A stretch of DNA of 32,000 bases, from positions 240,001 to 272,000 of the forward strand of contig OZ245049.1 in NCBI GenBank assembly GCA_965224465.1. The letters run 5' to 3'. This DNA is from Flavobacteriaceae bacterium. Its GTDB lineage: Bacteria > Bacteroidota > Bacteroidia > Flavobacteriales > Flavobacteriaceae. Shown piece by piece: positions 11,128 to 26,902 of this stretch. Every line of letters starts with the position of its first letter. Position 1 is the first letter of the stretch. The notes below the pieces were generated by a model. That model worked only from the letters and a program-made list of their open reading frames with translations, did no database searches and was not told the origin of the DNA. The position numbers and the translations under genes are program-made.

Positions 11128-11526
11128 ATGGGATCATTTAGAGCTCACCTAGAATTAGGTGGTAAGGAATTTGATGTGCTTTTTTCAGAGTACACATTCA
11201 GTCGTTCAACAGACAAAAAAGGAAAAGTATCTTCCAATGTAATCGGAGGAAGAGTTACAGTAGAAATTGAATCAACAGAGGATACTTCAGTAATTGAAGC
11301 CATGTTAAACAGTCAATTTAAATCTATAGAAGGGAAATTAGTCTACAAAAAAACAGACGAAGATTCTAAAATGAAAGAAGTAGAATTTAAAAATGCCTAC
11401 TTAGTACATTTTACCGAAACTTTAGACGTAAACGGAGACATTCCAATGAAAATTAGATTTACAGTTTCAGCTGAAGAAATTATCATCGGAAATGCAGCCA
11501 TCGATAATCGTTGGCCAAAAGCATAG
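11128..11526 (+). CDS. hcp: Hcp / TssD tube protein (Bacteroidota T6SS-iii type)
   Basis: 132 aa. MGSFRAHLELGGKEFDVLFSEYTFSRSTDKKGKVSSNVIGGRVTVEIESTEDTS.. matches the remembered pattern of Bacteroidetes TssD proteins (..L.VGGKEYDVL...Y...R..D..G.PSS.V.GG.I.VE.ESTEDT..). Confidence 0.85.
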   Translation: MGSFRAHLELGGKEFDVLFSEYTFSRSTDKKGKVSSNVIGGRVTVEIESTEDTSVIEAMLNSQFKSIEGKLVYKKTDEDSKMKEVEFKNAYLVHFTETLDVNGDIPMKIRFTVSAEEIIIGNAAIDNRWPKA

Positions 11527-11548
11527 TAGTACCCTAAAAAACAGTCAA

Positions 11549-11582: not shown

Positions 11583-11711
11583 GTATTGGGAATTATTTGC
11601 TTTTTGAATAAAAACGCACACTTTTCCACAGTATTAAATAACAAAATACAAGAGGGATCCCCATAGTTTTTCTAGCTTTAGTAATAAAAATAATTGCAAA
11701 AAAAAAGAGAT

Positions 11712-13529
11712 ATGAGTGCACCAAAAACCAGCCTAAGTATAGACGGGAAAACCATTACAAGTTTTACTAAAATACACTTAGTTCAAAAAATAAATGACCA
11801 TCATTTTTTTGAAATTATTTTAGACAATGATGTGGTAGAAGAAACCGGAGGACATACCATAGATAAATCGAAGGATTGGCTAGGAAAATCATTAATTATA
11901 ACTTTTGGCACCGTCGATTTCTTAGGTTATATAAGCTCCATAAACCTTGAAAATAAGGATGGACATAATGGTAATTTAATCATAAAAGGATATTCGCCCA
12001 CCATACTTTTACAAGGAGGAAAACAATTGTGTTCTTGGCGGGAAAACACCTTAGAAGGTATTGTAAGACAAACCATGGGAGACTTACGAGTTCCGTTGCT
12101 CATAAAACCTACATTTAACGAAGTCATAGAATACCAAGTACAATACAACGAAAATAATTATGATTTTTTACAGCGATTGGCAAAACAATACAACGAATGG
12201 TTTTATTATAACGGCGTACAATTAATATTTGGGAAACCACCCCAAGAAGAAGCTGTAGCAATCGAATACGGCAGAGACCTGTCCGAAATACAATTAGAAA
12301 TAAAAATAAAGGATCACGGACAAACAAAATTTTCTTACAATGCTACCAATAACAGATTAATAAGCACTTCGTCCAAGGATCAAGTAGCAGGATTAAACGA
12401 ACTGGGCTCACATGCCTTTTATACCTCTTTGGAAACCTACAAAAATCCAAAAAATGGTTTCACCAATATTGAGACTGAAATGAAATCTCAAATAGACGAT
12501 TTAGTCGCACGTAAACAAGCCACATTAAGTGCAGGATTGCATGTAATGAAAGGAAAAAGTACCAAGCAGGGCTTAACCGTAGGAACTGTGATTAAGGTGA
12601 GATCTGCCAAGGTAGACGAGGAAACTAGCTTTGACATTAAAAATTATGGGGAGTATATGATTACCAATATAAGCCACCATGCTACCGAACGTTCGGAATA
12701 TTACAACACCTTTGAGGCAATTCCGTCTGGAATTGCAGTACTCGAAGAACCCAAGGTATCCTTTCCCAAGGCATCAAACCAACTAGCCACGGTTATGTCT
12801 AATGCCGACCCCAGAGAAATGGGACGCGTACAAGTACGTTTTAATTGGCAAATACACACCATGAAAACTTCCTGGATACGTGTAATGACACCCGATGCTG
12901 GAAGCAGTAAAAACCATGCAAAAAATAGAGGACATGTTTTTATCCCCGAAGTAAACGACCAGGTAATGGTAGGTTTTGAATACAACGATCCCAACAGACC
13001 CTTTGTGATGGGGAGTATGTTTCACAACGAAAATGGCGCAGGAGGAAAACAAGACAATAATATAAAATCCATCATTACTAAAAGTGGGCATCGTATTGAG
13101 TTTAATGATACGCCAAGCAGTGAAAGTATTACCATTACGGATAAAAAAGGCAATCATATAATTATAGATACCAAAAATGAAACAATTAGTATCAATGCAC
13201 TCAAGGATATTAATATTACTGCGGGAGAAAATATAAATATCAGCGCAGGTAAAAATATAGTGGTAAATGCGGGAGAGAATATTGATGAGACGGCTGGACG
13301 GAATATATCTTCTAGAGCAGGGAAGGATATTTTACAAAATGCGAGTGGAGATATAAAGGAGAAGGCAGATAATATTAAGCAAATAGCCGACAATAAGTTT
13401 AATATACAATCTAAAGAATCTAAGGAGTATTCAGACGTGATAAATGTGCAAAGTTTAAAAAACGAAATAAATATGCTGAGTGCAAAAAAAGTAATTATTA
13501 ATTCTAAAGAAAAATCTAATTTATTTTAA
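11712..13529 (+). CDS. vgrG: VgrG / TssI spike protein
   Basis: Gp5/VgrG OB-fold block GRVQVRFNWQ..SWIRVMTPDAGS..GHVFIPEVNDQVMVGFEYNDPNRPFVMGSMFH, then a repetitive beta-helix-like tail (INITAGENINISAGKNIVVNAGENIDETAGRNI). The ATG at 11712 is preferred over the TTG at 11694. Confidence 0.9.
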   Translation: MSAPKTSLSIDGKTITSFTKIHLVQKINDHHFFEIILDNDVVEETGGHTIDKSKDWLGKSLIITFGTVDFLGYISSINLENKDGHNGNLIIKGYSPTILLQGGKQLCSWRENTLEGIVRQTMGDLRVPLLIKPTFNEVIEYQVQYNENNYDFLQRLAKQYNEWFYYNGVQLIFGKPPQEEAVAIEYGRDLSEIQLEIKIKDHGQTKFSYNATNNRLISTSSKDQVAGLNELGSHAFYTSLETYKNPKNGFTNIETEMKSQIDDLVARKQATLSAGLHVMKGKSTKQGLTVGTVIKVRSAKVDEETSFDIKNYGEYMITNISHHATERSEYYNTFEAIPSGIAVLEEPKVSFPKASNQLATVMSNADPREMGRVQVRFNWQIHTMKTSWIRVMTPDAGSSKNHAKNRGHVFIPEVNDQVMVGFEYNDPNRPFVMGSMFHNENGAGGKQDNNIKSIITKSGHRIEFNDTPSSESITITDKKGNHIIIDTKNETISINALKDINITAGENINISAGKNIVVNAGENIDETAGRNISSRAGKDILQNASGDIKEKADNIKQIADNKFNIQSKESKEYSDVINVQSLKNEINMLSAKKVIINSKEKSNLF

Positions 13530-13530
13530 A

Positions 13531-13701
13531 ATGGCCATTATAAAGAGAGCAAAAAATATTGAAAAAATAGCGTATAACAAATATGTTATTATGTCTAAGG
13601 AATTAAATAAAATAGCAGATACTATTACCATTGAGTCTGCAAAGGAGAGTATGACAATAGCTGGAGCCACAATGGTAAATATTAAAGCTAATAATAAGTA
13701 A
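13531..13701 (+). CDS. Small 56-aa ORF immediately after vgrG (not in the supplied ORF track)
   Basis: The ATG lies 1 nt after the vgrG stop. MAIIKRAKNIEKIAYNKYVIMSKELNKIADTITIESAKESMTIAGATMVNIKANNK has an alternating pattern reminiscent of the VgrG tail. Coding status is uncertain. Confidence 0.3.
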   Translation: MAIIKRAKNIEKIAYNKYVIMSKELNKIADTITIESAKESMTIAGATMVNIKANNK

Positions 13702-13722
13702 TGTTTTCTTAATTCATTAAAT

Positions 13723-14148
13723 ATGAGTGATACTTTTATTGTTGTAAGTACGTGTTTTTTAGGGTTTATTGTATATGTATTTGTTTTTAAGGCGGCATTA
13801 AAATTTAAAATGAATACGAACCTGTATCTTTTGTTGTTAGCCTATTTTATAAGTCCTATATCATTTGAAATTACGTTTCAAATTTTTATTTACATACTTT
13901 TCCAAACATATGCTAAGAAACCACAACTGGATGTAATTATTTATTGGTGGATTCTAATTAAAATTCTGTTAATGATGGTCTATTTTTTAATGGATCTTTC
14001 TTCTGGGGAATCAAGTGGTTTTGGTAGTGATGCTGCTGGTTTTTCAATGGTGTCAGGAAAGGATTTTATCTTTCAAATTGTTTATCAGATGGTGGTTTTG
14101 TTGCTAACGATTATTGTCTTTTTTATACATGAAAATAAGATGATTATA
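13723..14148 (+). CDS. Multi-pass membrane segment (142 codons) with no stop, reading in frame into Tli-like copy D
   Basis: About four hydrophobic helices (FIVVSTCFLGFIVYVFVF, LYLLLLAYFISPISF.., IIYWWILIKILLMMVYFL, VYQMVVLLLTIIVFFI). There is no stop codon before the ATG at 14149. Confidence 0.4.
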
Positions 14149-15195
14149 ATGAATAAAAAAACAGCAATATGCGTAACGTTATGCTTTGTGTTACTATTAA
14201 TAAACTGTAAAAGTGATAAAATGGAGAAAGAATATATATGGATGGTATCTGCGGATGCTGCAAAAGGTTTTCCCGCAACCTTTCATTATGGTTATTTAGG
14301 TGATACAGGAATAAGAGGAGGAGGTATTTTGGGTTATGGTTGGGGTTTAGGAGGGACTTTGACAGGGTCTATATCCGAAAAGAGACCCTTACCTAAGCAA
14401 TTAGACTTGGTCTGGATGTCCTATGTAGAAAACCAGTTTTATGAAGGGCATTTTGAATTGGATCATAAAAAAATAGCCACTATTTTTGAAAAAGGCTATA
14501 AAAATAACACAGACAAAGGAGTTGTAATGGATCATGAATTCACTTTTAGAATAAACGTGGCTCCTGGAGGCACCGTGGCTATTTGGTTAATGGGACAATA
14601 TGGTTTTCAACGGGAAGTGGGCTTTTACCAAGCAAAAAAAACTTCGGTTGTATGGAGGGAATTTGTACCGACTGGATTACAAGATAGAGCATTGTATGTA
14701 AAAGAAACGTTGGAAGAAGAACTAACAAAAAAACAGCTTGAGAAATACCAATCAGAAGGTATTCCTTATGAGAAATGGAAAAATTACCGGCAGCAATTTG
14801 AATGGAAAGTTTCTATTGAAGGAAGCTCAAGAGTGATATTCTTAAATTCGGAAACATTTAATGGAGAGCAATATACCTTGAAAGATGTTTTTTTAGATAT
14901 TGATAATAATGTAATAAAAGCAGCTTTACCCAAAGAGTTAGGAATGCAATGGGAGGAAGATCCGGCAAAGGAGGAGATGTTTACTGCATCATTAAAAATA
15001 AAGGAAAATGATTTTAAAAAACTAACAAGACTTTTTAAAGAAAATAATTCCAAAGGACATTTTGTGATAACACCTTATATGGCTAAAAACGTAAAAAAAG
15101 TAAGGTTGTTTTTAGTTACAGGTACTAAAAAGGAAGAATTGGAATTAGAGGAGAATACGGTGCGTCATTTTCCTGATTATTATAAAAACAAATAG
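14149..15195 (+). CDS. Tli-like lipoprotein copy D (intact frame)
   Basis: 348 codons with its own signal peptide and lipobox MNKKTAICVTLCFVLLLINC. It is a mosaic of the copy A middle segment and the copy B 3' segment. Confidence 0.75.
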   Translation: MNKKTAICVTLCFVLLLINCKSDKMEKEYIWMVSADAAKGFPATFHYGYLGDTGIRGGGILGYGWGLGGTLTGSISEKRPLPKQLDLVWMSYVENQFYEGHFELDHKKIATIFEKGYKNNTDKGVVMDHEFTFRINVAPGGTVAIWLMGQYGFQREVGFYQAKKTSVVWREFVPTGLQDRALYVKETLEEELTKKQLEKYQSEGIPYEKWKNYRQQFEWKVSIEGSSRVIFLNSETFNGEQYTLKDVFLDIDNNVIKAALPKELGMQWEEDPAKEEMFTASLKIKENDFKKLTRLFKENNSKGHFVITPYMAKNVKKVRLFLVTGTKKEELELEENTVRHFPDYYKNK

Positions 15196-15247
15196 ATTAT
15201 GAGCGGAATTTTTTTTGGAGACTACGAGCCATTAGTACAATAAAGGT

Positions 15248-16300
15248 ATGAATAAAAAAACAGCAATATGCGTAACGTTATGCTTTGTGTTACTATTAAT
15301 AAACTGTAAAAGTAATAAAATGGAGAAAGATTATATATGGATGGTATCTGCGGATGCTGCAAAAGGTTTTCCCGCAACCTTTCATTATGGTTATTTAGGT
15401 GATACAGGAATAAGAGGAGGAGGAGTTTTGGGTTATGGTTGGGGTTTAGGAGGGACTTTGACAGGGTCTATATCCGAAAAGAGACCCTTACCTAAGCAAT
15501 TGGACTTGGTCTGGATGTCTTATGTAGAAAACCAGTTTTATGAAGGACATTTTGAATTGGATCATCAAAAAATAGCCGCTATTTTTGAAAAAGGCTATAA
15601 AAATAACACAGACAAAGGAGTTGTAATGGATCATGAATTCACTTTTAGAATAAACGTGGCTCCTGGAGGCACCGTGGCTATTTGGTTAATGGGACAATAT
15701 GGTTTTCAACGGGAAGTGGGCTTTTACCAAGCAAAAAAAACATCGGTTGTATGGAGTGAATTTGTTCCGAATGGATTGCAAGATAGAGCATTGTATGTGT
15801 CAAATAGACTAAAAAAACGTGTAACAAAAAAACAACTCGAGCAATACCAAAACGAAGGCATTCCTTATGAGAAATGGAAAAATTACCGGCAGCAATTTGA
15901 ATGGAAAGTTTCTATTGAAAGAAGCTCAAGAGTGATATTCTTAAATTCGGAAACATTTAATGGAGAGCAATATACCTTGAAAGATGTTTTTTTAGATATT
16001 GATAATAATGTAATAAAAGCAGCTTTACCTAAAGAGTTAGGAATGCAATGGGAGGAAGATCCTGCAAAGGAGGAGATGTTTACTGCATCATTAAAAATAA
16101 AGAAAAATGATTTTAAAAAACTAACAAGACTTTTTAAAGAAAATAATAGCAAAGGACATTTTGTGATAACACCTTATATGGCTAAAAACGTAAAAAAAGT
16201 AAGGTTGTTTTTAGTTACAGGTACTAAAAAGGAAGAATTAGAATTAGAGGAGAATACGGTGCGTCATTTTCCTGATTATTATAAAAAAAATAAATTATGA
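15248..16300 (+). CDS. Tli-like lipoprotein copy E (intact), putative cognate immunity protein of the Tle1-like effector
   Basis: 350 aa with a lipobox. Its stop overlaps the effector start (ATGA at 16297..16300). Confidence 0.8.
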   Translation: MNKKTAICVTLCFVLLLINCKSNKMEKDYIWMVSADAAKGFPATFHYGYLGDTGIRGGGVLGYGWGLGGTLTGSISEKRPLPKQLDLVWMSYVENQFYEGHFELDHQKIAAIFEKGYKNNTDKGVVMDHEFTFRINVAPGGTVAIWLMGQYGFQREVGFYQAKKTSVVWSEFVPNGLQDRALYVSNRLKKRVTKKQLEQYQNEGIPYEKWKNYRQQFEWKVSIERSSRVIFLNSETFNGEQYTLKDVFLDIDNNVIKAALPKELGMQWEEDPAKEEMFTASLKIKKNDFKKLTRLFKENNSKGHFVITPYMAKNVKKVRLFLVTGTKKEELELEENTVRHFPDYYKKNKL

Positions 16301-17988
16301 GCGGAATTATTTTTGGAGACTACGAACCGAGTAAAACACCTATGGAAAGAGGGGCGGATGCTATTATAGGGGTGTTTTTTGATGGTACAGGAAATAACCG
16401 TAAAAATGTACGTGCCTTTAAAGCTTTTAAAGGTGAAGATATTAAAATTGATGCAGGTGAAAACAAGCAAAAATATCTAGATGCTTACCACAAACATGCC
16501 GATAAAAATGATGGTCACAATAGTTATGAGGCAGACGAATCAAATGTATCACGCCTACAACCATTATATGTTGTGGATAAAACAAAAATATTCAGTTTAT
16601 ATGTAGAAGGTATCGGTACGGAGAGTTTTAAAGGTGACTCTGGTGTTGGGAGTGCTTTGGGTACAGGTGATACAGGTATTATAAAACGGGTAAAAAATGC
16701 ATGTGAAACAATAGCTAAAAAAACATTAAACGGAATAAAATCGAAATCTAAAGACACCAAAGGAAACATGCTTATAGAAAAAGTAATCTTTGATGTGTAT
16801 GGGTTTAGTAGGGGAGCAGCCGCCGCGAGACATTTTGTAGCTCAGGTTAAAAGCAAAGGGAGCTATAACAAATATAAGGATAGGAACGGAGAAACACATA
16901 TTGTGGATATTCCAGACTTTGGGTACTTAGGATATGCCTTAAAAAAGGCTAAAATAACCATAAATACTATTGAAATACGCTTTGCTGGATTGTATGATAC
17001 GGTGTCCTCTTATGGTATAATACATAAAAACGACCATCAGCAGTTAGCCTTAAATCAGTTACACCATGTTAAAAAAACGATCCATTTAATAGCACAAGAC
17101 GAAATACGGTATAATTTTGATTTGACAGATATTACGAGTGCGGGATATAAAGGACTTACCATTAGTTTTCCAGGTGTACATTCTGATATTGGAGGTGGCT
17201 ATTTACAAAATATAAAAGAAGAAAAAGTGTTGTTATGGGATCTAAATGATGATGGCGAAGAAGCTTTAAAAAAACACAACTATTTTATAGCAGAAGGATG
17301 GTACAAAGCACATGAAATAGATTTAATAGATGGTAAAATAAGAGATGAAATTATAGGGAGAAGAATAAACATAACCAATAAGTACAGTGTATTGCCATTG
17401 CAGTTAATGGGGAAATTATCGGATGAGTACAAGGCTAAAATTGATATAGATGCTTTAGAAGATGATTTTAAAACAGAAGGGGCTTTATTAAAAGAAGTGG
17501 AAAAACGTTTAAAGGCACAGTTTTCAGCAAAATATACTAAAAAAACAACACGTATTGATTTGTTAAAATTTGATTCCGTTGAAAATGAAAAGGAGCTATT
17601 AGCAGAAAAACAAAGAGAATTAAAGGAAATAGCCAGTAAGTGGAAAATACAGCTTAAGACTTTAAATAATAAGCCTATAAAACCCTTATACAATGCTTGG
17701 AACTACGCTCCTAGAATTGACAAAATAAGAGTTGTGCAAAATAAACGAATGATAGCAAAAGATACTGTTCCTCTTGATACGATTAATTATTCTGCATTAA
17801 GTGATAACCAATTACTACGAGCTCTGCGTAATAAGTTTTTACACGTCTCTTTTGATTATACCAATGCAACACCAACTAGCTGGTGGCAATATATAGGTGT
17901 GTTACATGAAATTATACGTTATCAAGAGCCTATGAAACCAAGAGAAAATGGACAGCGAGTGGTCTATGAAGATTTAAAAAAATATTAG
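16297..17988 (+). CDS. Tle1-family (DUF2235 alpha/beta-hydrolase) T6SS phospholipase-type effector
   Basis: GVFFDGTGNN N-terminal motif, GxSxG as YGFSRGAAAARHF, AGLYDTVSSYG, and HSDIGGGY. All are hallmarks of DUF2235/Tle1. The position next to hcp-vgrG and lipoprotein genes fits. Confidence 0.8.
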   Translation: MSGIIFGDYEPSKTPMERGADAIIGVFFDGTGNNRKNVRAFKAFKGEDIKIDAGENKQKYLDAYHKHADKNDGHNSYEADESNVSRLQPLYVVDKTKIFSLYVEGIGTESFKGDSGVGSALGTGDTGIIKRVKNACETIAKKTLNGIKSKSKDTKGNMLIEKVIFDVYGFSRGAAAARHFVAQVKSKGSYNKYKDRNGETHIVDIPDFGYLGYALKKAKITINTIEIRFAGLYDTVSSYGIIHKNDHQQLALNQLHHVKKTIHLIAQDEIRYNFDLTDITSAGYKGLTISFPGVHSDIGGGYLQNIKEEKVLLWDLNDDGEEALKKHNYFIAEGWYKAHEIDLIDGKIRDEIIGRRINITNKYSVLPLQLMGKLSDEYKAKIDIDALEDDFKTEGALLKEVEKRLKAQFSAKYTKKTTRIDLLKFDSVENEKELLAEKQRELKEIASKWKIQLKTLNNKPIKPLYNAWNYAPRIDKIRVVQNKRMIAKDTVPLDTINYSALSDNQLLRALRNKFLHVSFDYTNATPTSWWQYIGVLHEIIRYQEPMKPRENGQRVVYEDLKKY

Positions 17989-17990
17989 AA

Positions 17991-18932
17991 ATGCAACAAC
18001 AACCATCCAATCAGAACCAAACGCTACCCTTGGTAAAAGAAGGGCCTAAAAGGCTGCGTTTTTATAAAAACGGGAAAATAAAAAACCAAGCTAGGTATGC
18101 GCATCGCACCTATGGAGTTTCTATTGGATATACGGATGGAAAAACCATAGATTATTTGTTGGAAGTAAAATGCATTAAAAAGGTTGGGGATTGTTTGTAT
18201 TATGAGCTCCATAGAAAACGGTTTTTTAAAAATGGCGAACAAGTACATTCGTTTATGGACACACTCGCCGAAAAAAGTATTGGCTGTTTGTATCCATTAG
18301 TGTTAAAAGTAGCCGATAATGGCGAAGTCATAGGCATAGAAAACCAAGTAGAAATAGAAAAACGATGGAAAGAAAATCGTAAAAAGATAGCAAAAACGCA
18401 CCAAGGGGAAATAGTAGAAAGTTATTTTAAAACCATGGACAAGGCTGTAAGTAGCGCCGCTAATTTGGCTAAAAGTCTCGCAAACGATATGGTTTATAGT
18501 TTGCTGTTTTCTAATATATACATTGCCTATACAAAAGAATACCAAGTGGAGCTAGTAAAAAAAACACCTTTTATTGCAAACTATAAAACATTGGTATTTA
18601 AAGGGCAGCAGCGAATAGAAACGCATGTAGCTAAAAATAATCGGTGTAGTATTTATTACAAGGGAGCATTACAAGCTACAAATCAACTGAAAGAAGGGGA
18701 TTTAAAGATACACTATCAATTGGATGCCCAAGATTATGGACTGTTAAGAGTTGATGGAGAAGCAACTTATATATTGGGAGCACATAAAAAAATAATCACC
18801 TTTAAAATAATAGCACAAAAAACGCTTGATAAAACCAAAGAAAGCACCATAAAAGCACACAAAGCATTAGGTATTTATAACGACCCCAACGAACCTGAAC
18901 CTAAATGGTACCAACTTTGGAAATATCTATAA
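17991..18932 (+). CDS. Hypothetical 313-aa cytoplasmic protein (no signal peptide) between the effector and the PAAR-like gene
   Basis: The ORF starts 2 nt after the tle1-like stop. No motif recognised. Confidence 0.6.
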   Translation: MQQQPSNQNQTLPLVKEGPKRLRFYKNGKIKNQARYAHRTYGVSIGYTDGKTIDYLLEVKCIKKVGDCLYYELHRKRFFKNGEQVHSFMDTLAEKSIGCLYPLVLKVADNGEVIGIENQVEIEKRWKENRKKIAKTHQGEIVESYFKTMDKAVSSAANLAKSLANDMVYSLLFSNIYIAYTKEYQVELVKKTPFIANYKTLVFKGQQRIETHVAKNNRCSIYYKGALQATNQLKEGDLKIHYQLDAQDYGLLRVDGEATYILGAHKKIITFKIIAQKTLDKTKESTIKAHKALGIYNDPNEPEPKWYQLWKYL

Positions 18933-18943
18933 AAAAGAAAAAA

Positions 18944-19414
18944 ATGGGAAAAGCACTAGTATGTCAAAAAGCAGAATGCGAATGTGAACACGGTAATATG
19001 CCGGATAAAATAATATCTGTAAGTAAGCATCGGCAATATGTAAACGATGTGGAAGGCGAAGAAAAAATGATCGTTTCTACGATGGATATCGGCCAACCTT
19101 TTGAAAAAAAAACCTTTGGGACTTGTAAATTACAACCTACGCCAAGTGGTTACAAAGTATGCCAACCACAAATAACAAAATGGGAGGATTTTTACGATAA
19201 AGTAACACTGGACAACGGAGGGAATCCCATTTTAGAAAACAGCAAAGCCATCTGCCCCATTGCAGGAGTTGCTTGTATTTCTATTACTTTTCATGGACAA
19301 AAAGGAGAAATGACAGAACAGCATCAAGAGGAAGCCGACCCCGAAGTACAAAACATGCTAAATCCATTGGCTAGTAGTACGGAACAAGGAGAAGAACCAC
19401 AGGAGAGATATTAA
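18944..19414 (+). CDS. DUF4280 PAAR-like spike-tip protein
   Basis: MGKALVCQKAECECEHGNMPDKI...FGTCKLQP......CQPQITKWEDFYDKV...GNPILENSKAICPIAGVACISITFHGQ matches the DUF4280 Cys / FG.C / W / C.P / GQ pattern. It has an acidic C-terminal tail. The ATG at 18944 is preferred over 18905. Confidence 0.75.
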   Translation: MGKALVCQKAECECEHGNMPDKIISVSKHRQYVNDVEGEEKMIVSTMDIGQPFEKKTFGTCKLQPTPSGYKVCQPQITKWEDFYDKVTLDNGGNPILENSKAICPIAGVACISITFHGQKGEMTEQHQEEADPEVQNMLNPLASSTEQGEEPQERY

Positions 19415-19425
19415 AATTTAAAAAC

Positions 19426-22400
19426 ATGGCATCAGAAAAAATTATAGTAACAACTAGTTCAAAAAAAATAGTTTCAGAAGGAACCGCTAGTTTTAAAGCG
19501 GCATTATTAAGTGAGCAAGGTGCTCTATTGCAAAAAAAACTAGAGAATTTTCGTGTTTTTGAGGCTGTAGTAGGCCAACCTATTTCTTTTAAATTAATTG
19601 CAGATGTAAGTACAACCATAAACCCCATAGCAACACAAACACGTGTTTTTCTTGCGAAACAATCCTTAAAAAACTTTGGAAAGCATGAATGGATGCCTTT
19701 TGACGGAGTAAGCAATAAAGAAAATTTGCATGATCTAATAAATAATTTAAGTAAAAAACAAATTTCACTTGACTTATTCAATAAACTTTCGGATAAAGGA
19801 ACAAAAAAGGTAGGGAAAAATTATTTACAAAATTTTGAAGTTGCTAACATTAATGGTAAGACCACATTTCGAGAAATTAAAACGTCATTTACACTTACCG
19901 CGGAAGATATTGGCAAAGGGTTTTGGGTAGAAGCATTTAATTACAAACCCGAATGGATAAAGGAGCAAGGAGTTATAATTGTAGGTGTTGAGAACCCAAA
20001 AGTCGTCAGTTTTTATGCAAAAAAAAGAGATATAAAAGAAAATAAAATAAAAACAATTGCCAAAGATACAATAGAAACAAGTATTAGTAAAGAATTGGTT
20101 TATGGTGATATTCTAGATATTTTTATACATATCCACACTAGAAATAAAAACTTTCCTATTACCTTAAGTATCATAAATACCGATGGAGGAAAAGAAACTA
20201 TTTTACATACTCAAGAATTCAGCGAAAAACACTTTATAAGCAGACCAACTACAATAGGTAGAGTTTTAACAATCGAAGAAATTAATTTATTGCCACAATG
20301 GATTTCATTACTTAAACATGAAGTAGGTACACAAAAAAACTTTGTAATACGGATGGAGTTAGATCTTTGCTCAACTAAAGATGTTAAAGGGAATTATTCT
20401 TTTGAAAGTATTACAAAAGAAATAAATTTCACAATAAATTATAAAGACGAATGGAATACAGACCAAGACGAAGCCGAATGGATAGCCCAAATAGCTGAAA
20501 TAAAAGAAGCTCCCTTGGTTACTCAAAAACATGAAGAATGCCTTTATACAGCATTGGAGGTTAAAATTGAAGGAGAAGAAGATGTTATCATTTTAAAAGA
20601 ATGCGAAAATGAAGATGGTTCTTTAGATATAAACGACACAACAACCATCATAGAAATTATTGCAGGGAATAAGGCAAATAAAAAAACAATTACAATACTG
20701 GCAAAGAATTTAGATACTACTAAATGTGTAAATGAAATGGGGTTTAGTAATACCGATACCAAAAGTGGTGCGCATACAGGGGATGTTTTTAATACGGATG
20801 AACTTTTTTACTTAAACGATATTATAAGAGGAGCTACAGATAAAAATATTTTTAAGGTAGCCCCCAATCTAACATACAAGGTAAATGAAGACGCAGGAAC
20901 ATTAACTATCGATGCAATGTATGGTTATGATACATCACATAAATTAAAAGGATTAAAGTACCTGCCTGGGGTAGGTTATAACACTTTAATAAGCAGCCTC
21001 CCTGGCATACATACTTTTCTGATACCTGTACAAACCTGTAGGTATATACGTACGCCACTTTTTAAAATTTACCCCGACGATTTATGGACGTTTCATTTGA
21101 TTTATAATGGTTTAGGAGGAAGTTACTTTTTTCAAGAAGATGATTCCTATGATGATAAATTATTAAAGGGGGCAGATAAATTACTGAAGAGGTTTTCTGA
21201 ACATTTAGATGAATATATTATTGAATTATCTAATGTTTCAGAATCAGAAGGTTTAGTAATGATAGATAAAAAAGATGAAGATACAATTTTTAATAAAATG
21301 ATTTCTTGGGCTAAAACTTCTATTGGAGGTGAAGAGGAAGATACTTTATTAATTGCAGGTACAAAATGGATTAAAGATAAGTTGATAGAGTTTTTAAAAG
21401 CAGAAGCGCAAAAAAATGCTATTGGATTTCTTTTGCAATATGATAACAAAAATAAAGAAATTGATTATACAAAAGAATATCAAGAGGTGTTTGAAGGTAT
21501 GATTTTAGCAATGATGACAGTTTCTTTTATTTTAGAGATATTACTTATGTTTTTTTCTGGAGGAAGCACAGCTATATTTAAAGCTAAAAAGGCATTAAAA
21601 GCAACAAAAGTAGCTTTTACTAAAAAAAATTTCAACCCTGCTACTTTTAATAAAATAAAAGAAAAATATAAGGAATTAGGAAAAGCTTATGATGATATTG
21701 GATTAAATAAAGAAGTAGAGCTTAATTATAATGAGTGGGAGGATGTTAAAGGAGATAAGGCAAAAGGTTTTTCTAGCTATAGCATGTCTAAGAGAAAAAA
21801 AATAGATATAAATATTGATATTATTTTACCAAAAATAGGTGTAAATTATGGTACTTATTACGAGAAACAACCTGATGGAAAAGTAAACAGGATACATGAG
21901 TTTGCAATAAAAGCAAATCCTTTTTTAGCTGTTAATATTGATGCGGCAATGAATACGGATCAAATAATAAAAGTAATAAAAAATGTAAACCGATGGATGC
22001 AAGGTTTAGAACCTAAAACTTATGACATAAAAAAAGGTAAAACTATTGATGCCTCTCTTAAATTTGGTTTTGTAGCTATTGGAGCTATAGTAAGCGAACT
22101 TAAAGTAAAGTTTAATAGCAATACTAAAACATTCATTATAAAAGACCATGAAAACCAAAAAGAAGAGAAAAAAACAGACGATAAAGTAGTTATAAAAAAT
22201 GGTGCACGTATAATTGTAGATTTGTACGGAAAAGGAGAAATGAAAGCCCAAGTAAAATGGGTGCCATTTTTAAAAGCCTCAGTATCTGCAAAGGTTAATG
22301 TTGGGGGGCATGTAGGTGTAAATAATATTTATGGCTACGATAGTAAAGGGCCTTATATGCACCAAGAATTTTATTTTTCGGGGCTAAAAGGTACTTTTAC

Positions 22401-22572
22401 CGCGAAAATGATTATTGGGAAGAAAAATGTATTTTCATTTAATTCAGATAATCAAAAAATAAAAAACGGAGAAATAAGTGATAAAACAAAAAAGGAGTTA
22501 GAAGAAAATGCAATAGAACCTTATGTAATGCAAACCCCAAAGTTTTACCCTTTAGATTTAATAAATAATTAA
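19426..22572 (+). CDS. 1048-aa protein of unknown function, a candidate T6SS cargo effector
   Basis: A long uninterrupted ORF 11 nt after the DUF4280 gene. It has one strongly hydrophobic helix (FEGMILAMMTVSFILEILLMFFSGG) and a Gly/aromatic-rich C-terminal ~150 aa. Partial copies of its middle and C-terminus occur downstream. Confidence 0.85.
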   Translation: MASEKIIVTTSSKKIVSEGTASFKAALLSEQGALLQKKLENFRVFEAVVGQPISFKLIADVSTTINPIATQTRVFLAKQSLKNFGKHEWMPFDGVSNKENLHDLINNLSKKQISLDLFNKLSDKGTKKVGKNYLQNFEVANINGKTTFREIKTSFTLTAEDIGKGFWVEAFNYKPEWIKEQGVIIVGVENPKVVSFYAKKRDIKENKIKTIAKDTIETSISKELVYGDILDIFIHIHTRNKNFPITLSIINTDGGKETILHTQEFSEKHFISRPTTIGRVLTIEEINLLPQWISLLKHEVGTQKNFVIRMELDLCSTKDVKGNYSFESITKEINFTINYKDEWNTDQDEAEWIAQIAEIKEAPLVTQKHEECLYTALEVKIEGEEDVIILKECENEDGSLDINDTTTIIEIIAGNKANKKTITILAKNLDTTKCVNEMGFSNTDTKSGAHTGDVFNTDELFYLNDIIRGATDKNIFKVAPNLTYKVNEDAGTLTIDAMYGYDTSHKLKGLKYLPGVGYNTLISSLPGIHTFLIPVQTCRYIRTPLFKIYPDDLWTFHLIYNGLGGSYFFQEDDSYDDKLLKGADKLLKRFSEHLDEYIIELSNVSESEGLVMIDKKDEDTIFNKMISWAKTSIGGEEEDTLLIAGTKWIKDKLIEFLKAEAQKNAIGFLLQYDNKNKEIDYTKEYQEVFEGMILAMMTVSFILEILLMFFSGGSTAIFKAKKALKATKVAFTKKNFNPATFNKIKEKYKELGKAYDDIGLNKEVELNYNEWEDVKGDKAKGFSSYSMSKRKKIDINIDIILPKIGVNYGTYYEKQPDGKVNRIHEFAIKANPFLAVNIDAAMNTDQIIKVIKNVNRWMQGLEPKTYDIKKGKTIDASLKFGFVAIGAIVSELKVKFNSNTKTFIIKDHENQKEEKKTDDKVVIKNGARIIVDLYGKGEMKAQVKWVPFLKASVSAKVNVGGHVGVNNIYGYDSKGPYMHQEFYFSGLKGTFTAKMIIGKKNVFSFNSDNQKIKNGEISDKTKKELEENAIEPYVMQTPKFYPLDLINN

Positions 22573-22581
22573 AAATATAAA

Positions 22582-23535
22582 ATGAAACAACTAATAAGAG
22601 TCATACTATTATGTATTATGGTGCAAGCTTGTGGACAAACGTATAATAAAATGGAAAGAGATAAAAATATGATAACTGCTAATAATTTTGTTGAAGAAAC
22701 AGAAAAACATGTAAAACATTTTGAGAAAGAGCCTTATTACAAGATGCATACTGGGTCTCCACAGGATTGTAATTATGAAATTTCGGTAAACGATCTCCCT
22801 GTATATAAAAGTTATTCAGGTTTCAAAGATTTGACAGGAACTCCAATAAACGAGGCTATATTGAAAAGTGGAGAACAACGGATTACCATAAAAATATTCC
22901 CGCCAGAAAAGGATAGTATACTCAGCAAACAAGCCAATATGTATTTTAGATTGGTAGAGGTAGATCATATGACCAGTCAATTCGAAGAAAAAAATATTTT
23001 AAGTTTTGTATTACCTTCAGATGATGATGGGGATTTTTCAGGAGCAGGTTTGCCTTATTTTGAAAAAGAATTGGTTTTTAATGCTTCTGTACCTTATGAG
23101 GTAAAAGGTTGGAGTGAAAGTCAAAATCTTTCTAAGTTAGACCAAGATAAATTAAAAGAAAAAGTAATTGGTTTTTATAAAAAAACGGGTGTCGAAGAAG
23201 TGAAAAAAAACATCGATTTTCTTTTTAATGCTATGCATAAAAAACAAGTGGAGAGAGCTATTTCAAATTATACTTCCAAGGAAGATTTAGCCGTTATGAT
23301 TAATGAAATGAAAAGATATGTAAAATATGCTAAACGTTTTGAATTAACCGAACCATATACAATGAAACTATATGGAAATAACCGTTTAGTTATTTTGGAA
23401 GTTTTAATTGGTGAATATAAAGGAGATGGAGCTCATTCTTTATTTGTACAGAAAGGAGAGGAATCTGGATTTAATAGAGATACCTATTACCTCCACATAC
23501 CTAAAGGAAAAACAGCATTAGAGATCATAAGGTAG
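22582..23535 (+). CDS. Lipoprotein, putative immunity protein for the 1048-aa protein
   Basis: MKQLIRVILLCIMVQACGQ has a lipobox. It starts 9 nt after the effector stop. A diverged paralog follows the orphan C-terminal fragment. Confidence 0.7.
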   Translation: MKQLIRVILLCIMVQACGQTYNKMERDKNMITANNFVEETEKHVKHFEKEPYYKMHTGSPQDCNYEISVNDLPVYKSYSGFKDLTGTPINEAILKSGEQRITIKIFPPEKDSILSKQANMYFRLVEVDHMTSQFEEKNILSFVLPSDDDGDFSGAGLPYFEKELVFNASVPYEVKGWSESQNLSKLDQDKLKEKVIGFYKKTGVEEVKKNIDFLFNAMHKKQVERAISNYTSKEDLAVMINEMKRYVKYAKRFELTEPYTMKLYGNNRLVILEVLIGEYKGDGAHSLFVQKGEESGFNRDTYYLHIPKGKTALEIIR

Positions 23536-23569
23536 TAAAAAAAGTCTAACAGTTTGTTAGGCTTTTTTT
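23536..23569 (+). terminator. Rho-independent terminator closing the effector operon
   Basis: agtctaaca-gtt-tgttaggct hairpin (one G-U pair) plus ttttttt. A decayed copy lies at about 26346..26380. Confidence 0.65.
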
Positions 23570-23572
23570 ACC

Positions 23573-24040
23573 AATACATTTGATTTTAAAAAGCACGAAA
23601 ACCAAAAAGACCCAGATAAACTCAGCGATAAACTGATTTGTAAAAACGGAGTTCGAATAATTGTGGATGTATTTGGAAAAGGAAAATTATCGCTTAAAGT
23701 ACGGTGGAAAGAAATTATTAACTATACGCTAGCCGAAGTAAGTGTAAAAGCAACACTGGGAGGCCATATAGGTGCAAATTCTATTTATGGCTACGATGAG
23801 CAAGGCCCTTATATGCAACAAGAAATTTATTTCTCTGGATTGAAAGGGAGTTTTGAGGTGAAAGGACGTTTTAATAACAATGATATCTTCTCCTATAGCA
23901 CAGAGAAACAGAAATTAATAAACGGAAAAACAGCAGACAAAACGGCAGAAGAATTACAAGAACAAGTATTGGAACCTTATGTATTCCAAACCAAAAAGTT
24001 TTACCCTTTAACTTTAATGAAAAATGAGAATAATAATTAG
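23573..24040 (+). pseudogene. Orphan, promoterless and start-less C-terminal fragment (~155 codons) homologous to the end of the 1048-aa protein
   Basis: NTFDFKKHENQKDPDKLSDKLICKNGVRIIVDVFGKGK..GGHIGANSIYGYDEQGPYMQQEIYFSGLKGSFEV..EPYVFQTKKFYPLTLM aligns with KTFIIKDHENQKEEKKTDDKVVIKNGARIIVDLYGKGE..GGHVGVNNIYGYDSKGPYMHQEFYFSGLKGTFTA..EPYVMQTPKFYPLDLI. It begins immediately after the terminator. Confidence 0.8.
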
Positions 24041-24156
24041 AATGATATTAATGAGCTATATGTTCGTGGCATGTGGACAACAAAAGAATGAGAAAATGGA
24101 AGAAATAACATTTGATAATTTACCTAATATTTTAGAAAGAGAAATTAAACATTAGC

Positions 24157-25277
24157 TGAATTCAAGTCACAAACGCAACTTTTAGTTAAATAATAATTGT
24201 TCCATTACAAATATAGGGTTTTGATATTTATGTCTCTTCCTAGGTCTGTTATTTAATTTTGTTTCTACCTCTTTGATTCTTTGATCTGTTAGGTTTGTAA
24301 AGTCACTTCCTTTGGCAAAATATTGTCTAATCAAACCATTTAAATTTTCGTTAGATCCTCTTTCCCAAGAGTGATATGGATGCGCAAAAAAGTAATCAAT
24401 ACATAAATTTTCTGCAACCTGCTCATGGCCTGCAAATTCTTTTCCATTATCAGCTGTTATAGTATGTAGATAAGGCTTCCAGTCTTCTAATATTTCATTG
24501 ATAGCTTTAGTGACAACAACTGCTTCTTTAGAGCTTACTTTTTTCATTTTAAGCATTCCAGAAGCTCTATCATTTACGGTAAGTATGGCTTGATTATGGT
24601 TTTTACCTATGATTAAATCGACCTCTAAATCTCCAAATCGATTTCTTTGTTCAACAACTTCAGGGCGTTGTTCTATACTAATACGATTCTTTATAACCCC
24701 TCTAGAATCCTTTGATGAGCCACGTTTTCTATATCTCCTTCCCTGTCTGCGAAGGTGTGTATGTAAATCACCATCATTCCTCTTGTCTTCCCTAATATGC
24801 TGATATATACGCTCAATAGACACCGTTTCTTTACCTTGTTTTTTTAGGACACCAACTACTTGCTCAGGACTATAATCGTCTCGCAATAACAACTCTATTG
24901 CTTGTTGAATATCTTCTGTAAAGCGTTTTCTTTTAGGCTTTTCTTTATGACGTTTAGCATACTTTTTTTGGGCTAATTCATGCTTGTAAACTCCATTTCT
25001 TTTGTCTGAATTACGCTTAATCTCTTTGCTAATAACAGACTTGTCTTTTCCTATAGCAGCTGCTATCTCAACCTGTTTATAACCTTGTTTTAACATGCAA
25101 CAAATTGTGTATCTTTGCGCTTGGGTGATGTGTTTCATACAACTTCTTTTTTCGAGATTTGAGACCGTAAGATACATATCCATCAAGACAAGAAAGGTAG
25201 GTTTTCCTACTTTTCTGTTTTGAAAATATAACCATCATAGAATCAAATCGAAAAGTTGCGTTTATTAGTTGAATTTA
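24157..25277 (-). mobile_element. IS30-family insertion sequence (about 1.1 kb)
   Basis: 27-bp imperfect inverted repeats (23/27): tgaattcaagtcacaaacgcaactttt (24157..24183) and aaaagttgcgtttattagttgaattta (25251..25277). Confidence 0.8.
24182..25138 (-). CDS. IS30-family transposase
   Basis: MKHITQAQRYTICCMLKQGYKQVEIAAAIGKDKSVISKEIKRN.. HTH, ..LTVNDRASGM.., ..ITADNGKEFAGHE.., ..PYHSWERGSNENLNGLIRQYF.. DDE region. The Met at 25138 is the likely start. Confidence 0.85.
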   Translation of the reverse strand: MKHITQAQRYTICCMLKQGYKQVEIAAAIGKDKSVISKEIKRNSDKRNGVYKHELAQKKYAKRHKEKPKRKRFTEDIQQAIELLLRDDYSPEQVVGVLKKQGKETVSIERIYQHIREDKRNDGDLHTHLRRQGRRYRKRGSSKDSRGVIKNRISIEQRPEVVEQRNRFGDLEVDLIIGKNHNQAILTVNDRASGMLKMKKVSSKEAVVVTKAINEILEDWKPYLHTITADNGKEFAGHEQVAENLCIDYFFAHPYHSWERGSNENLNGLIRQYFAKGSDFTNLTDQRIKEVETKLNNRPRKRHKYQNPIFVMEQLLFN

Positions 25278-26000
25278 AGTTACCTTTAAACCCAATGCTG
25301 GTAAATAGCGGGATAAAAGAACTAAAAATAAAAATATACCCAAAGGAAGGCGAAAAGGTATTAAGCAGTTATACTCGTGTAGGTTTAACACTTTATTTTG
25401 CGCCAGACAAAGATAGTAGATTAAAAGACTACCAAAAAATAGCTACCTTTAAATTGCCAGAAGATATTGCAGAGCAAAAACTACCTTATTATGAGGGTGT
25501 AATCACTTTTAAAGCAGAGGTTCCTTTTGATTATAGTCAAGATTTAGAGGACGCAGTTAATATAGAAAAATTAAAAAGCATAGAAAAAAAAATAGTTAGT
25601 AAATACAATGAACTTAGGGAAATGTGTATTAATAATGATGTTATAGATTATAATAAACGTCAAATACATTCTTCAATCATAGTTTATAACACAACTTATG
25701 AAAATACTATAGAAGAAATAGAAAAATCTGAAAGTACTATTTTATCTATGGTAGACTCTAGATTAGAAAATAAAGAAGTATTACCAATAGAGAATTATAT
25801 TATTCAATTTTATGCTGAGGGTAAAATCGTTGCATTATGGCAAAAAGATTTAAACCCCATGTTATATGTAAAAGGAACGCATACCAACACGGAAGGGTTT
25901 ACAAGGAAATATGAATATGGTGACGCCATTTTTTTATATATGCCTAAAGGTAGTAAGGAGTTGATAATGTGGTAGTCAAAAGTAATATAATATTAATTTT

Positions 26001-26437
26001 ACAATAAATTATAAAGATGACTGAAGCGTAGACCAAGACGAAGCCGAATGGATCGCCCAAATAGCTGAAATAAAAGAAGCTACCTTGGTGACTCAAAAAC
26101 ATGAAGAATGCCTTTATACAGCATTGGAGGTTAAAATTGAAGGAGAAGAAGATGTTATCATTTTAAAAGAATGCGAAAATGAAGATGGTTCTTTAGAAAT
26201 AAATGACACAACACCCATCATAGAAATTATTGCAGGGAACAAGGAAAATAAAAAAACAATTACAATACTGGCAAATAATTTAGATACTACTAAATGTGTA
26301 AATGAAATGGGGTTTAGTAAAACAGCATTAGAGATCATAAGATAGTAAAAAAAGCCTAACATTGTGTTGTGCTTTTTTTTTAAAACAATAAATTTGATTT
26401 TAAAAAGCACGAAAACCAAAAAGACCCAGATAAACTC
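26001..26437 (+). pseudogene. Collapsed chimera: effector middle fragment (matches 20431..20750) fused to the last codons of the immunity gene, then the terminator and the start of the orphan C-terminal fragment
   Basis: 26001..26320 is near-identical to 20431..20750 but contains stops. The junction ggtttagtaa|aacagcattagagatcataa continues as 23511..23625 (TALEIIR*, hairpin, tttgattttaaaaagcacgaaaaccaaaaagacccagataaactca). Confidence 0.8.
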
Positions 26438-26479
26438 ATGTTTATATTATCCCAAAAGTATACCTGTAAATTTAAATAA

Positions 26480-26902
26480 AAGAAGCTACCTTGGTCACTA
26501 AGAAGAATGTAGCTATACAGAAATAAATATTACAGGATTAGAAGAGCCTTTTTTAAAACAAAATACTGATGGATGTTTGGATAATTATCCAACTTCGATA
26601 TTGGAATATGTAGGAGGAAATAAAAAAAAGCCTAAAACCATTACTATCAATCTTAAGGACGTGGAAACTACAGAATGCCAAGAAGCAGGGTTTGACAATA
26701 CCCCCCTGCCGCACTAGTAGCCGCTATCGCTAGGCACGATTGTATCGTGTAGCGTCTATCAGTAAGCCATGCAGTTATTTATTTTTCATATCGTATTGTA
26801 ATAGGTAAAAAGATTCCATATTAGGGATTCGTAAGCTGCTACGGTCATACGATACAATCGCGAGAGCGGGGGGGGTATACGGATGTTAAGATTTTCAGTT
26901 AA
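26480..26902 (+). pseudogene. Second, more divergent fragment of the same effector middle region, interrupted by a GC-rich palindromic element
   Basis: KEATLVT.. ..NKKKPKTITINLKDVETTECQEAGFDNT parallels KEAPLVTQ.. ..NKANKKTITILAKNLDTTKCVNEMGFSNT. After the element, tatacggatgttaagatt parallels catacaggggatgtttttaat (HTGDVFN). Confidence 0.55.
26698..26878. repeat. GC-rich palindromic (MITE-like) element of about 175-180 bp
   Basis: The ends are ataCCCCCC (26698..26706) and GGGGGGGGtat (26868..26878). Internal complementary blocks are cgattgtatcg (26737..26747) and cgatacaatcg (26850..26860). GC content is strikingly above the surroundings. Confidence 0.55.

Follow-up and report, generated by a model that had tools for sequence, protein, structure and literature searches.

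The question raised by this locus is what a large protein of no recognisable family does behind a PAAR-like gene: how it would be delivered, which part of it would be toxic, and which neighbour would protect the producer. The locus lies in a Flavobacteriaceae bacterium (assembly GCA_965224465.1, contig OZ245049.1, positions 240,001 to 272,000 of the forward strand; this stretch of 32,000 nucleotides (nt) is called the window throughout). An original prediction, made from the letters of the sequence, had proposed that the DUF4280 PAAR-like gene, the gene for a 1048-amino-acid (aa) protein and a lipoprotein gene form an uncharacterised effector/immunity module of the Bacteroidota type VI secretion system (T6SSiii). 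We find that positions 17991-23535 are a single operon-like cassette within an auxiliary hcp-vgrG cluster of the T6SSiii. Our reading, to which we give a probability of about 0.6, is that the 1048-aa protein is a polymorphic T6SSiii effector which would be loaded through an adaptor and a PAAR-like tip, would carry an exchangeable toxin part that damages the envelope or membrane non-enzymatically, and would be countered by the lipoprotein as its immunity protein. The cassette consists of four genes:

17991..18932, + strand: BtapC/Ate3-type T6SS adaptor, 313 aa, first gene of the cassette (profile match to PDB 9jg8_A).
18944..19414, + strand: DUF4280 PAAR-like spike-tip protein, 156 aa, with an acidic tail of ~35 aa (PF14107, E 2.8e-18).
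19426..22572, + strand: effector, 1048 aa (open reading frame, homolog family and synteny).
22582..23535, + strand: candidate immunity lipoprotein, 317 aa (lipobox, position 3′ of the effector).

The tight packing behind hcp-vgrG that had been described holds, with all open reading frames (ORFs) at their predicted positions and gaps of 2 nt (from an upstream Tle1-like gene to the adaptor gene) and then 11, 11 and 9 nt through adaptor, DUF4280, effector and lipoprotein genes. For the DUF4280 gene we used the ATG at 18944, the mechanical ORF beginning at 18905. In the window, two DUF2931 genes and the Tle1-like gene separate vgrG from the cassette.

The loading parts are the two of the four cassette components that are recognisable by sequence, as a BtapC/Ate3-class adaptor and a DUF4280 tip. 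The adaptor family profile (A4) matched PDB chain 9jg8_A, 'Bacteroides T6SS Adapter Protein C' (BtapC), with E 2.7e-16 over 119 of 285 profile positions (residues 30-150 of 254), and the 313-aa protein of the window matched the same chain on its own with E 5.2e-4. The DUF4280 identity of the 156-aa protein, already proposed, was confirmed by PF14107 (E 2.8e-18) over the whole profile and above the gathering score; the protein also matched the N-terminal PAAR-like domain of BtpeA, a DUF3289 family protein (9jg8_B/9jg9), with E 1.3e-14. BtapC represents the ortholog class of Ate3 (PMC13402684), a class with an 11-strand open-barrel fold. In B. fragilis, spike loading and secretion of the effector Bte3 require the adaptor Ate3 and the DUF4280 protein Pte3, and Bte3 is toxic in the periplasm only, where the lipoprotein Bti3 neutralises it (PMC13402684). 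Two sequence tests together with synteny thus support placing the window cassette in this adaptor/PAAR-like loading class.

The synteny comes from 14 loci, 13 of them obtained by a scan of one genome per species and one by looking up an OmpA-type relative. Thirteen of the 14 carry vgrG, an adaptor homolog, DUF4280, the effector and one to five lipoprotein copies in the same order; the exception is L002, whose upstream region showed no homolog of vgrG, of DUF4280 or of the 313-aa protein. The loci come from Aquimarina, Flavivirga, Lacinutrix, Tenacibaculum, Flavobacterium kingsejongi and a metagenome-assembled genome. Since the same gene order recurs in 13 other loci, the arrangement in the window is not due to chance, and since an adaptor homolog is conserved upstream of DUF4280 (13/14 loci), the cassette has four genes rather than three. 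The 313-aa upstream gene therefore belongs to the module, which goes beyond what had been proposed. The proposal of a T6SSiii effector/immunity module itself gains support from the position of the cassette behind vgrG in 13 of 14 loci, from the BtapC-type adaptor and from a lipoprotein that co-varies with the C-terminal part of the effector.

To see which parts of the cassette travel together, the 14 effectors were split at a conserved CRY motif (aa ~537-538 in the window protein) and the pairwise identities of the cassette proteins were compared by Spearman rank correlation (rho, 14 cassettes). Co-variation was strong between adaptor and DUF4280 protein (rho 0.87), between DUF4280 protein and the N-terminal region of the effector (0.88) and between adaptor and N-terminal region (0.80), while it reached 0.49 between the effector C-part and the immunity protein and 0.30 between N-region and immunity protein. 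Together with the B. fragilis precedent, this co-variation suggests that the DUF4280 protein would cap the VgrG trimer and that the adaptor would load the effector onto the DUF4280 tip via the N-terminal tandem beta-sandwich region of the effector.

Two natural recombinants place the boundary more precisely. Compared with the locus of a metagenome-assembled genome (MAG; L001), the DNA of the window is 97.5% identical from 20411 (codon ~329) to 23568, a block that includes the immunity gene and its terminator, and ~80% identical over 11002-19383 (hcp to DUF4280), whereas the first ~330 effector codons have diverged beyond the reach of blastn. At the protein level, the N-region shares ~12-50% identity with the MAG ortholog and the remainder 85-100%. 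The Tenacibaculum loci L010 and L011 share a DUF4280 protein at 100% identity and an adaptor at 95%; identity between the two effectors is 85-100% as far as aa ~360 and drops to ~17% beyond. Downstream in L011 lies a 383-aa orphan that is 87.7% identical to aa 587-969 of the L010 effector, and after it comes an L010-type immunity gene. The break falls on one of the most highly conserved peptide blocks in the family, …F[TKS][IV]NYK…AQIAEIKEAxLVTQ, and orphan fragments 2 and 3 of the window (listed below) start there. From the co-variation and from the identity breaks in both comparisons we conclude that the first ~330 aa are probably a loading handle, and that the remaining ~700 aa, from a break at aa ~330-360, form an exchangeable toxin/immunity unit with the lipoprotein gene. 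As judged from the genome comparisons, comparative genomics shows that the effector from aa ~330 onwards is inherited and exchanged jointly with the lipoprotein gene. The effector is accordingly divided as follows:

19426..20410, + strand: aa 1-328, N-terminal loading region, predicted tandem beta-sandwich, immunoglobulin (Ig)-like (AlphaFold 2 (AF2), Foldseek, co-variation).
20411..21036, + strand: aa ~329-537, recombination block (INYKDEW...AQIAEIKEAxLVTQ) and middle domain with C372, C434 and H450 (DNA identity break, conservation).
21037..22572, + strand: aa 538-1048, conserved C-terminal module (found in homologs with three or more different types of N-terminus, OmpA-domain proteins among them).

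The window also holds the debris of such exchange. Recombination at the conserved block swaps the resident toxin part and pushes the old pieces downstream, and the decayed orphans at 23567-26717 arose in this way:

23567..24040, + strand: orphan effector 3′ fragment 1 (equivalent to aa 900-1048), without its own start codon and matching the resident copy at 70% (nt) and 52% (aa).
24024..25975, + strand: orphan immunity paralog, inactivated, with the signal-peptide part at 24024-24155 and the rest at 25256-25975; 25% identity, E 2e-11.
25992..26345, + strand: orphan middle fragment 2 (equivalent to aa 333-440), interrupted by an in-frame stop and joined to the final 7 codons and terminator of the immunity gene; 94% nt identity, 25992-26291 against 20422-20721.
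26474..26717, + strand: orphan fragment 3, the same middle region, frameshifted, a diverged allele (sequence comparison).

These pieces match the original description of orphans of the effector C-terminus and middle region (23567-24040 and 25992-26291) and of an immunity paralog after the C-terminal fragment, and add a third piece at 26474-26717. What had not been noticed is that the orphans are all decayed and that the paralog is split by an element of the insertion sequence (IS) family IS30 (about 24156-25280, within 24145-25289), with ~38 codons missing at the junction. The element has imperfect inverted repeats of 39 nt and encodes its transposase on the minus strand at 24182-25186. The split gene is nearest (48-50%) to the immunity genes beside the type-B effectors of L005 and L011. 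Within the fusion, 26319-26438 is a copy of 23509-23624. Read from their sequences, the orphan fragments are decayed relics of past exchange, and they do not define a 150-aa toxic domain. The suggestion that the last ~150 aa are the toxic module is not supported as it stands: the exchange unit begins at aa ~330-360 and spans ~700 aa, and the conserved C-module begins at CRY (aa 538). The 150-aa orphan that had been cited for it is a decayed remnant, and the immunity gene next to it is of another subtype and IS-inactivated.

Orphan fragment 3 is truncated by a G+C-rich stretch (26700-26880) that is unlike its surroundings, ends in a C-run and a G-run and contains a perfect 12-nt inverted repeat (26737-26748 and 26849-26860); it gave no Rfam match even at E 1.

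As for the effector itself, the 1048-aa protein had no match in Pfam, NCBIfam or PHROGs, nor by sequence in the PDB. Searches with the effector family profiles likewise found nothing, and ~30 homologs searched against Pfam yielded only an OmpA domain, in four of them. A word-indexed homolog search returned three matches with the single effector and four with a 42-sequence alignment; an exhaustive search of 1.84 billion representative proteins returned 43 relatives at E <= 0.001. The named relatives are all Flavobacteriaceae and nearly all marine (Tenacibaculum, Flavivirga, an uncultured Flavobacteriaceae MAG and Flavobacterium kingsejongi), and the genome scan extended the family to Aquimarina and Lacinutrix. 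Nearly all are annotated 'hypothetical', the F. kingsejongi protein being called 'OmpA family protein' after its OmpA domain. In addition, a 969-aa family member (P0060, cluster of P0009) is recorded among the transcriptome-derived proteins of the amoeba Pellita catalonica (EukProt) and is probably a bacterial associate or contaminant of Tenacibaculum type.

In four relatives (P0027, P0030, P0035, P0044) an OmpA peptidoglycan-binding domain is inserted between the first and second invariant cysteines, and the F. kingsejongi protein of this type (L014 10001-12874) sits in an adaptor-DUF4280-effector-lipoprotein cassette of its own, with an adaptor homolog at 3e-34 and a lipoprotein homolog at 9e-57. 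The C-terminal variants, all joined transitively by BLAST into one superfamily, differ in their hydrophobic segments: type A has a hydrophobic helix, and types B and C (for example L005 9854-12424 and L011 2329-4899; P0002, P0003, P0006 and P0014-P0018) have Gly-rich hydrophobic segments such as GPIVKGIGLVAYVAGVD and IIGAAIVAASYGG elsewhere in the C-module. The immunity genes of types B and C form a separate subfamily, to which the orphan immunity gene of the window belongs.

The window effector is of type A. Its C-module runs from CRYxRTPxFxIYPDxxW through a helical bundle with the hydrophobic helix, a basic stretch and a long beta-strand region to a GYDxKGPY..FSGLKG end. The single very hydrophobic helix that had been pointed out is indeed the sole one: FEGMILAMMTVSFILEILLMFFSGG, at aa ~685-709 and thus 65-68% along the effector, is the only stretch in which mean Kyte-Doolittle hydropathy over 19 aa exceeds 1.5, and the helix spans aa 685-712 (21478-21561). 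A central acidic residue (E/D) is conserved in the helix, and the stretch after it is 30% Lys/Arg. Helix, mid-helix E/D and basic flank are all kept in 16 of the 19 homologs tested; the three without the helix are type-B proteins with Gly-rich hydrophobic segments in its place. The Gly/aromatic-rich C-terminal motif, GGHVGVNNIYGYDSKGPYMHQEFYFSGLKG, was located at aa ~960-990.

Conservation picks out a second feature. C372, C434 and H450 (codons 20539-20541, 20725-20727 and 20773-20775) are invariant in 33 of 33 sequences; C538 (codon 21037-21039) and Y540 are invariant in 35 of 35, and D551 is present in 33 of 35. The Cys-Cys-His-Cys set is retained even in the OmpA-type variants. In the C-module past the CRY-to-W554 stretch (C538, Y540, D551, W554), by contrast, the well-conserved residues are nearly all Gly or Pro. 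These Cys3-His residues could bind structural zinc, or they could form a centre for catalysis or self-processing. The earlier statement that no catalytic motif can be recognised is only partly right, since the invariant C372/C434/H450/C538 set exists.

We modelled the full-length effector with AF2 from the 42-sequence alignment (mean predicted local distance difference test score (pLDDT) 67.6, predicted template modelling score (pTM) 0.50) and aa 525-1048 separately (mean pLDDT 63.9, pTM 0.58). The full-length model contains the following regions:

aa 25-340: all-beta (pLDDT mostly 80-90).
aa 370-560: beta-rich middle domain (confidence mixed), with C434 and H450 in poorly modelled loops (pLDDT 45-53).
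aa 573-760: helical bundle that includes the hydrophobic helix (helix pLDDT 85-93).
aa 794-1006: beta-strands 15-26 residues long (low confidence, mostly pLDDT 40-75).

With the full-length model, Foldseek against the PDB returned only tandem Ig-like and fibronectin type III-like proteins (pilins, PECAM-1, arrestins, RbmA, transglutaminase beta-domains) at E 1e-4 to 1e-3 and a template modelling (TM) score of ~0.1, a result which fits predicted N-terminal tandem beta-sandwiches and nothing more specific. With the aa 525-1048 model none of the PDB matches was significant, the best being microsomal triglyceride transfer protein at E 0.07. The tail of this list contains pore-state leukocidin, aerolysin, perforin, porins and small lipid carriers at E 0.2-3; the pore-former matches probably reflect long beta-hairpins in the model only. 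In two long strands of the C-module, hydrophobicity alternates above shuffled controls (z about 2.3-2.4).

The lipoprotein at 22582-23535 begins MKQLIRVILLCIMVQAC, and its lipobox, which the original prediction had already read, is supported by conservation of Cys17 in at least 90% of 20 homologs. One to five copies follow the effector directly in 14 of 14 loci, and the window copy, inside the 97.5% DNA block, is 99% identical to that of the MAG locus L001. It had no Pfam match, and only 11 clusters of relatives were found, none of them named. By its sequence and position it is a candidate periplasmic immunity protein. An action directed at the periplasm or membrane would agree with the hydrophobic helix, with the OmpA-domain variants and with the conservation of the lipobox.

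How does the cassette compare with known systems? It resembles most closely, in kind, the Bte3/Ate3/Pte3/Bti3 module of the B. fragilis GA3 T6SSiii (PMC13402684), with which it shares a phylum-specific T6SS, an Ate3/BtapC-class adaptor, a stand-alone DUF4280 protein, a large cargo effector and a lipoprotein, in the window a candidate immunity protein. By description, Bte3 also has N-terminal beta-sandwich domains and a beta-rich C-terminal part, the corresponding C-terminal strands of the window protein being those of a low-confidence model. Structural orthologs have been reported in free-living Bacteroidota, and Bti3 folds as a beta-sandwich plus four helices (PMC13402684). The gene order differs (adaptor-PAAR-effector-immunity in the window, effector-immunity-orf1-adaptor-PAAR in B. 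fragilis), and the window effector exceeds Bte3 by 280 aa; its helical bundle, its strongly hydrophobic helix and two insertions go unmentioned in the published description of Bte3. The structures of BtapC-BtpeA(-BtaeB) (PDB 9jg8, 9jg9) offer a second likeness, since the adaptor is homologous to BtapC and the DUF4280 protein to the PAAR-like domain of BtpeA; in BtpeA, however, that domain is fused to a DUF3289 toxin, whereas here a separate 156-aa tip accompanies a separate cargo toxin. The profile of the 1048-aa family matched none of the chains of 9jg8/9jg9, and Foldseek did not return those entries. The kind of module, with adaptor, DUF4280 protein, cargo effector and lipoprotein immunity, has thus already been described in B. 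fragilis in 2025-2026 (PMC13402684; PDB 9jg8); the toxin/immunity superfamily is undescribed and rare in databases.

In its evolution the cassette works like Rhs and contact-dependent inhibition (CDI) polymorphic toxins, as judged from the sequence comparisons, and is not a member of either. Like Rhs and CdiA-CT loci, it combines an N-terminal delivery part that stays constant with a C-terminal part that varies and is inherited along with the immunity gene, and it has a recombination block and decayed orphan tail/immunity pairs. Unlike them, it has no YD/Rhs or haemagglutinin repeats found by Pfam or NCBIfam, its C-terminal variants belong to one diverged superfamily rather than to unrelated folds, and its immunity proteins form one lipoprotein family. 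A further comparison is with the VasX-family pore-formers (VasX, Tke5, Ptx2 and the Bacteroidales Bte2). These are large effectors of several domains that are sent into the periplasm; in the soluble protein a helical domain conceals their hydrophobic helices, and they are proposed to act by depolarisation (PMC12718326, PMC12909789). The window protein is similarly large and multidomain and has its hydrophobic helix within a modelled helical bundle; it differs in having one such helix where they have several, in its large beta-rich C-terminal region, and in belonging to the class that depends for loading on a BtapC-type adaptor and DUF4280, not on MIX/Tap-type factors. Membership of the VasX family was rejected, there being no Pfam or PDB sequence match and no such chain among the Foldseek matches. 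We also rejected membership of the beta-barrel pore-formers (aerolysin, haemolysin/leukocidin, MACPF), for which Foldseek gave E 0.6-3, probability <=0.04 and TM <=0.17 on a low-confidence model, and of porin-like proteins, the C-module matches not being significant.

From these data the toxic mechanism is most likely non-enzymatic damage to the envelope or membrane. The effector would be delivered into the periplasm of a neighbouring Gram-negative cell, where the C-module would damage the envelope without enzymatic chemistry, most likely by membrane insertion of the buried hydrophobic helix and/or of the long amphipathic beta-strands, leading to depolarisation or pore formation. The lipoprotein, facing the periplasm of the producer and its kin, would bind and block the effector there. 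Several points weigh against this reading. Secretion, toxicity and immunity of the cassette are predictions from sequence, models and precedent, and core T6SS genes are absent within the window. The co-variation of C-part and immunity protein (rho 0.49) is no more than moderate overall, and the orphan effector tail and orphan immunity gene of the window are of different subtypes. The AF2 confidence is medium to low (67.6 and 63.9, with the C-terminal beta region mostly at 40-75), so the shape of the C-module is uncertain, and Foldseek gave no significant pore-former or membrane protein for it (best E 0.07). The lone hydrophobic helix can be just the buried core of a soluble helical bundle. Finally, C372/C434/H450/C538 could serve catalysis or autoproteolysis instead of holding a structural metal, in which case 'non-enzymatic' would be wrong.

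The last point leads to the main rival reading, which we think unlikely overall, namely that the effector is an enzyme or processes itself, with C372, C434, H450 and C538 (perhaps with E370 or D551) forming a thiol active site. Such a site would attack an envelope substrate, as an amidase, deamidase or transglutaminase-like enzyme, or cleave the effector to free the C-module, the helix and beta region then serving for targeting only. Together with Y540 (35/35) and D551 (33/35), the Cys/His set (33/33 and 35/35) comprises the only invariant polar residues of the family, and it is preserved in the OmpA-type variants too, and the middle domain that holds it lies between loading region and C-module. 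Releasing peptidases in other polymorphic toxins sit between loading region and toxin module in the same way. Set against this, no Pfam, NCBIfam or PDB profile of a peptidase or amidase family was matched, the Foldseek matches to transglutaminase/factor XIII (TM about 0.07-0.1) are of the same order as generic Ig-type matches, and a Cys3-His set with spacings of 62, 16 and 88 in poorly modelled loops is equally typical of a structural zinc site. If the C-module acted on lipids instead, its curved beta-sheet and hydrophobic helix would form a greasy cavity, like that of tubular lipid-binding proteins, that removes or misplaces envelope lipids or lipid-linked precursors and forms no pore. The top Foldseek matches, none of them significant, point in this direction (microsomal triglyceride transfer protein, E 0.07; vitellogenin, 0.2; juvenile-hormone-binding protein and botulinum P47, E 1.3-2.6), as does the description of Ate3 and of the Bte3 C-terminus as open beta-barrels, that of Ate3 with a hydrophobic cavity (PMC13402684). 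We nevertheless regard this as improbable, the matches being far from significance (probability <=0.16, TM <=0.13) on a low-confidence model and intermixed with pore-former and porin matches of similar rank, and the lipid-carrier hints are not relied on.

We give still less credence to the idea that the 1048-aa protein serves chiefly as a building block of the spike, needed for firing and not the killer, with the lipoprotein as an accessory factor. Deletion of bte3 (or of bfe5/bfe7) in B. fragilis abolishes Hcp secretion, such cargo being spike components as well (PMC13402684), and the effector is always found together with adaptor and DUF4280. Against it stand the allelic replacement of the distal two-thirds together with the lipoprotein gene, the displaced orphans and the arrays of two to five lipoprotein paralogs, all hallmarks of toxin/immunity conflict; moreover, structural and toxin roles are mutually compatible. 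Returning to the effector as an envelope-damaging toxin, a more specific version can be put forward only tentatively. Here, aa ~330 to the end would be a new toxin superfamily, so far confined to Flavobacteriaceae and not simply a distant ortholog of Bte3, in which a Cys3-His middle domain (zinc or thiol) controls or releases a mixed alpha/beta membrane-inserting module, built from one hydrophobic helix with an acidic centre and a sheet whose strands are very long, and a dedicated family of periplasmic lipoproteins neutralises it; such an action would have no described counterpart.

To our knowledge, T6SSiii effectors outside gut Bacteroidales are almost unexplored. The cassette extends the adaptor/DUF4280 loading route, lately solved in B. 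fragilis, to Flavobacteriaceae that are mostly marine and include the fish pathogens of the genus Tenacibaculum, and it pairs this known route with an unannotated toxin/immunity superfamily that has no Pfam model and whose named entries are 'hypothetical' or labelled after OmpA. The natural recombinants split the effector in two, the loading part co-evolving with adaptor and tip and the toxin part swapping with the immunity gene. This guides where to cut the protein, and the conserved recombination block is potentially usable for engineering cargo swaps. Should the toxic mechanism be new, it would point to an additional vulnerability of the target envelope; should the protein be a Bte3 ortholog, the dozens of diverged sequences would aid the search for the target of Bte3. 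The most useful outputs are the domain boundaries from the recombinants, the invariant Cys3-His set and the BtapC/Ate3 link.

The surrounding window has a G+C content of ~32%, and insertion sequences lie on both flanks of the auxiliary hcp-vgrG cluster. Besides the cassette, the cluster contains the following features:

11128..11526, + strand: Hcp/TssD tube protein, start of the auxiliary cluster (Pfam PF17642 TssD, E 2.4e-40).
11694..13529, + strand: VgrG spike protein (Pfam Phage_base_V 7.5e-19, Phage_GPD 6.7e-10, DUF2345 8e-7); NCBIfam VgrG models match with scores under their cut-offs.
13723-15195 and 15248-16300, + strand: two DUF2931 (Tli1-like) lipoprotein genes, belonging to the Tle1-like effector (PF11153, 1e-20 and 6e-22).
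16297..17988, + strand: Tle1-like phospholipase, the second effector in the cluster (Pfam PF09994, 2.7e-17).
23537..23571, no strand assigned: A-tract, hairpin and T-tract at the end of the operon, with a second copy at 26345-26379 (direct reading and inverted-repeat detection).

The hairpin at 23537..23571 was not listed by a simple terminator scan because its stem has too few G-C pairs; the promoter/terminator scan of the window gave nothing above shuffled expectation, and the Rfam scan of the window gave no match.

The DUF2931 (Tli1-like) gene forms a 1099-bp tandem unit present in five copies of 82-100% identity within 7379-10623 and 14149-16300, three upstream of hcp and two after vgrG. 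The copies upstream of hcp are split into shorter ORFs (254+83, 148+192 and 248+83 aa) and, being broken, resemble a partly decayed immunity array. In the 490-aa ORF at 13723-15195, an N-terminal part of ~140 aa with several hydrophobic segments is fused in frame to a complete DUF2931 lipoprotein that keeps its own Met and lipobox (MNKKTAICVTLCFVLLLINC); in Aquimarina muelleri (L004 1013-1468) the counterpart of this N-terminal part is a separate 151-aa ORF. Further transposase genes lie at 2166-3331 (minus strand) and 4336-5769 (minus strand), one of IS3 type (helix-turn-helix plus rve) and one DDE_5/DDE_Tnp_1, so that with the IS30 element three IS families surround the T6SS cargo cluster in 32 kb. 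Lastly, a 243-aa ORF at 30327-31058 has an N-terminal HEMGH motif (HExxH-type) and no Pfam match, and may encode an unannotated metallopeptidase-like protein.

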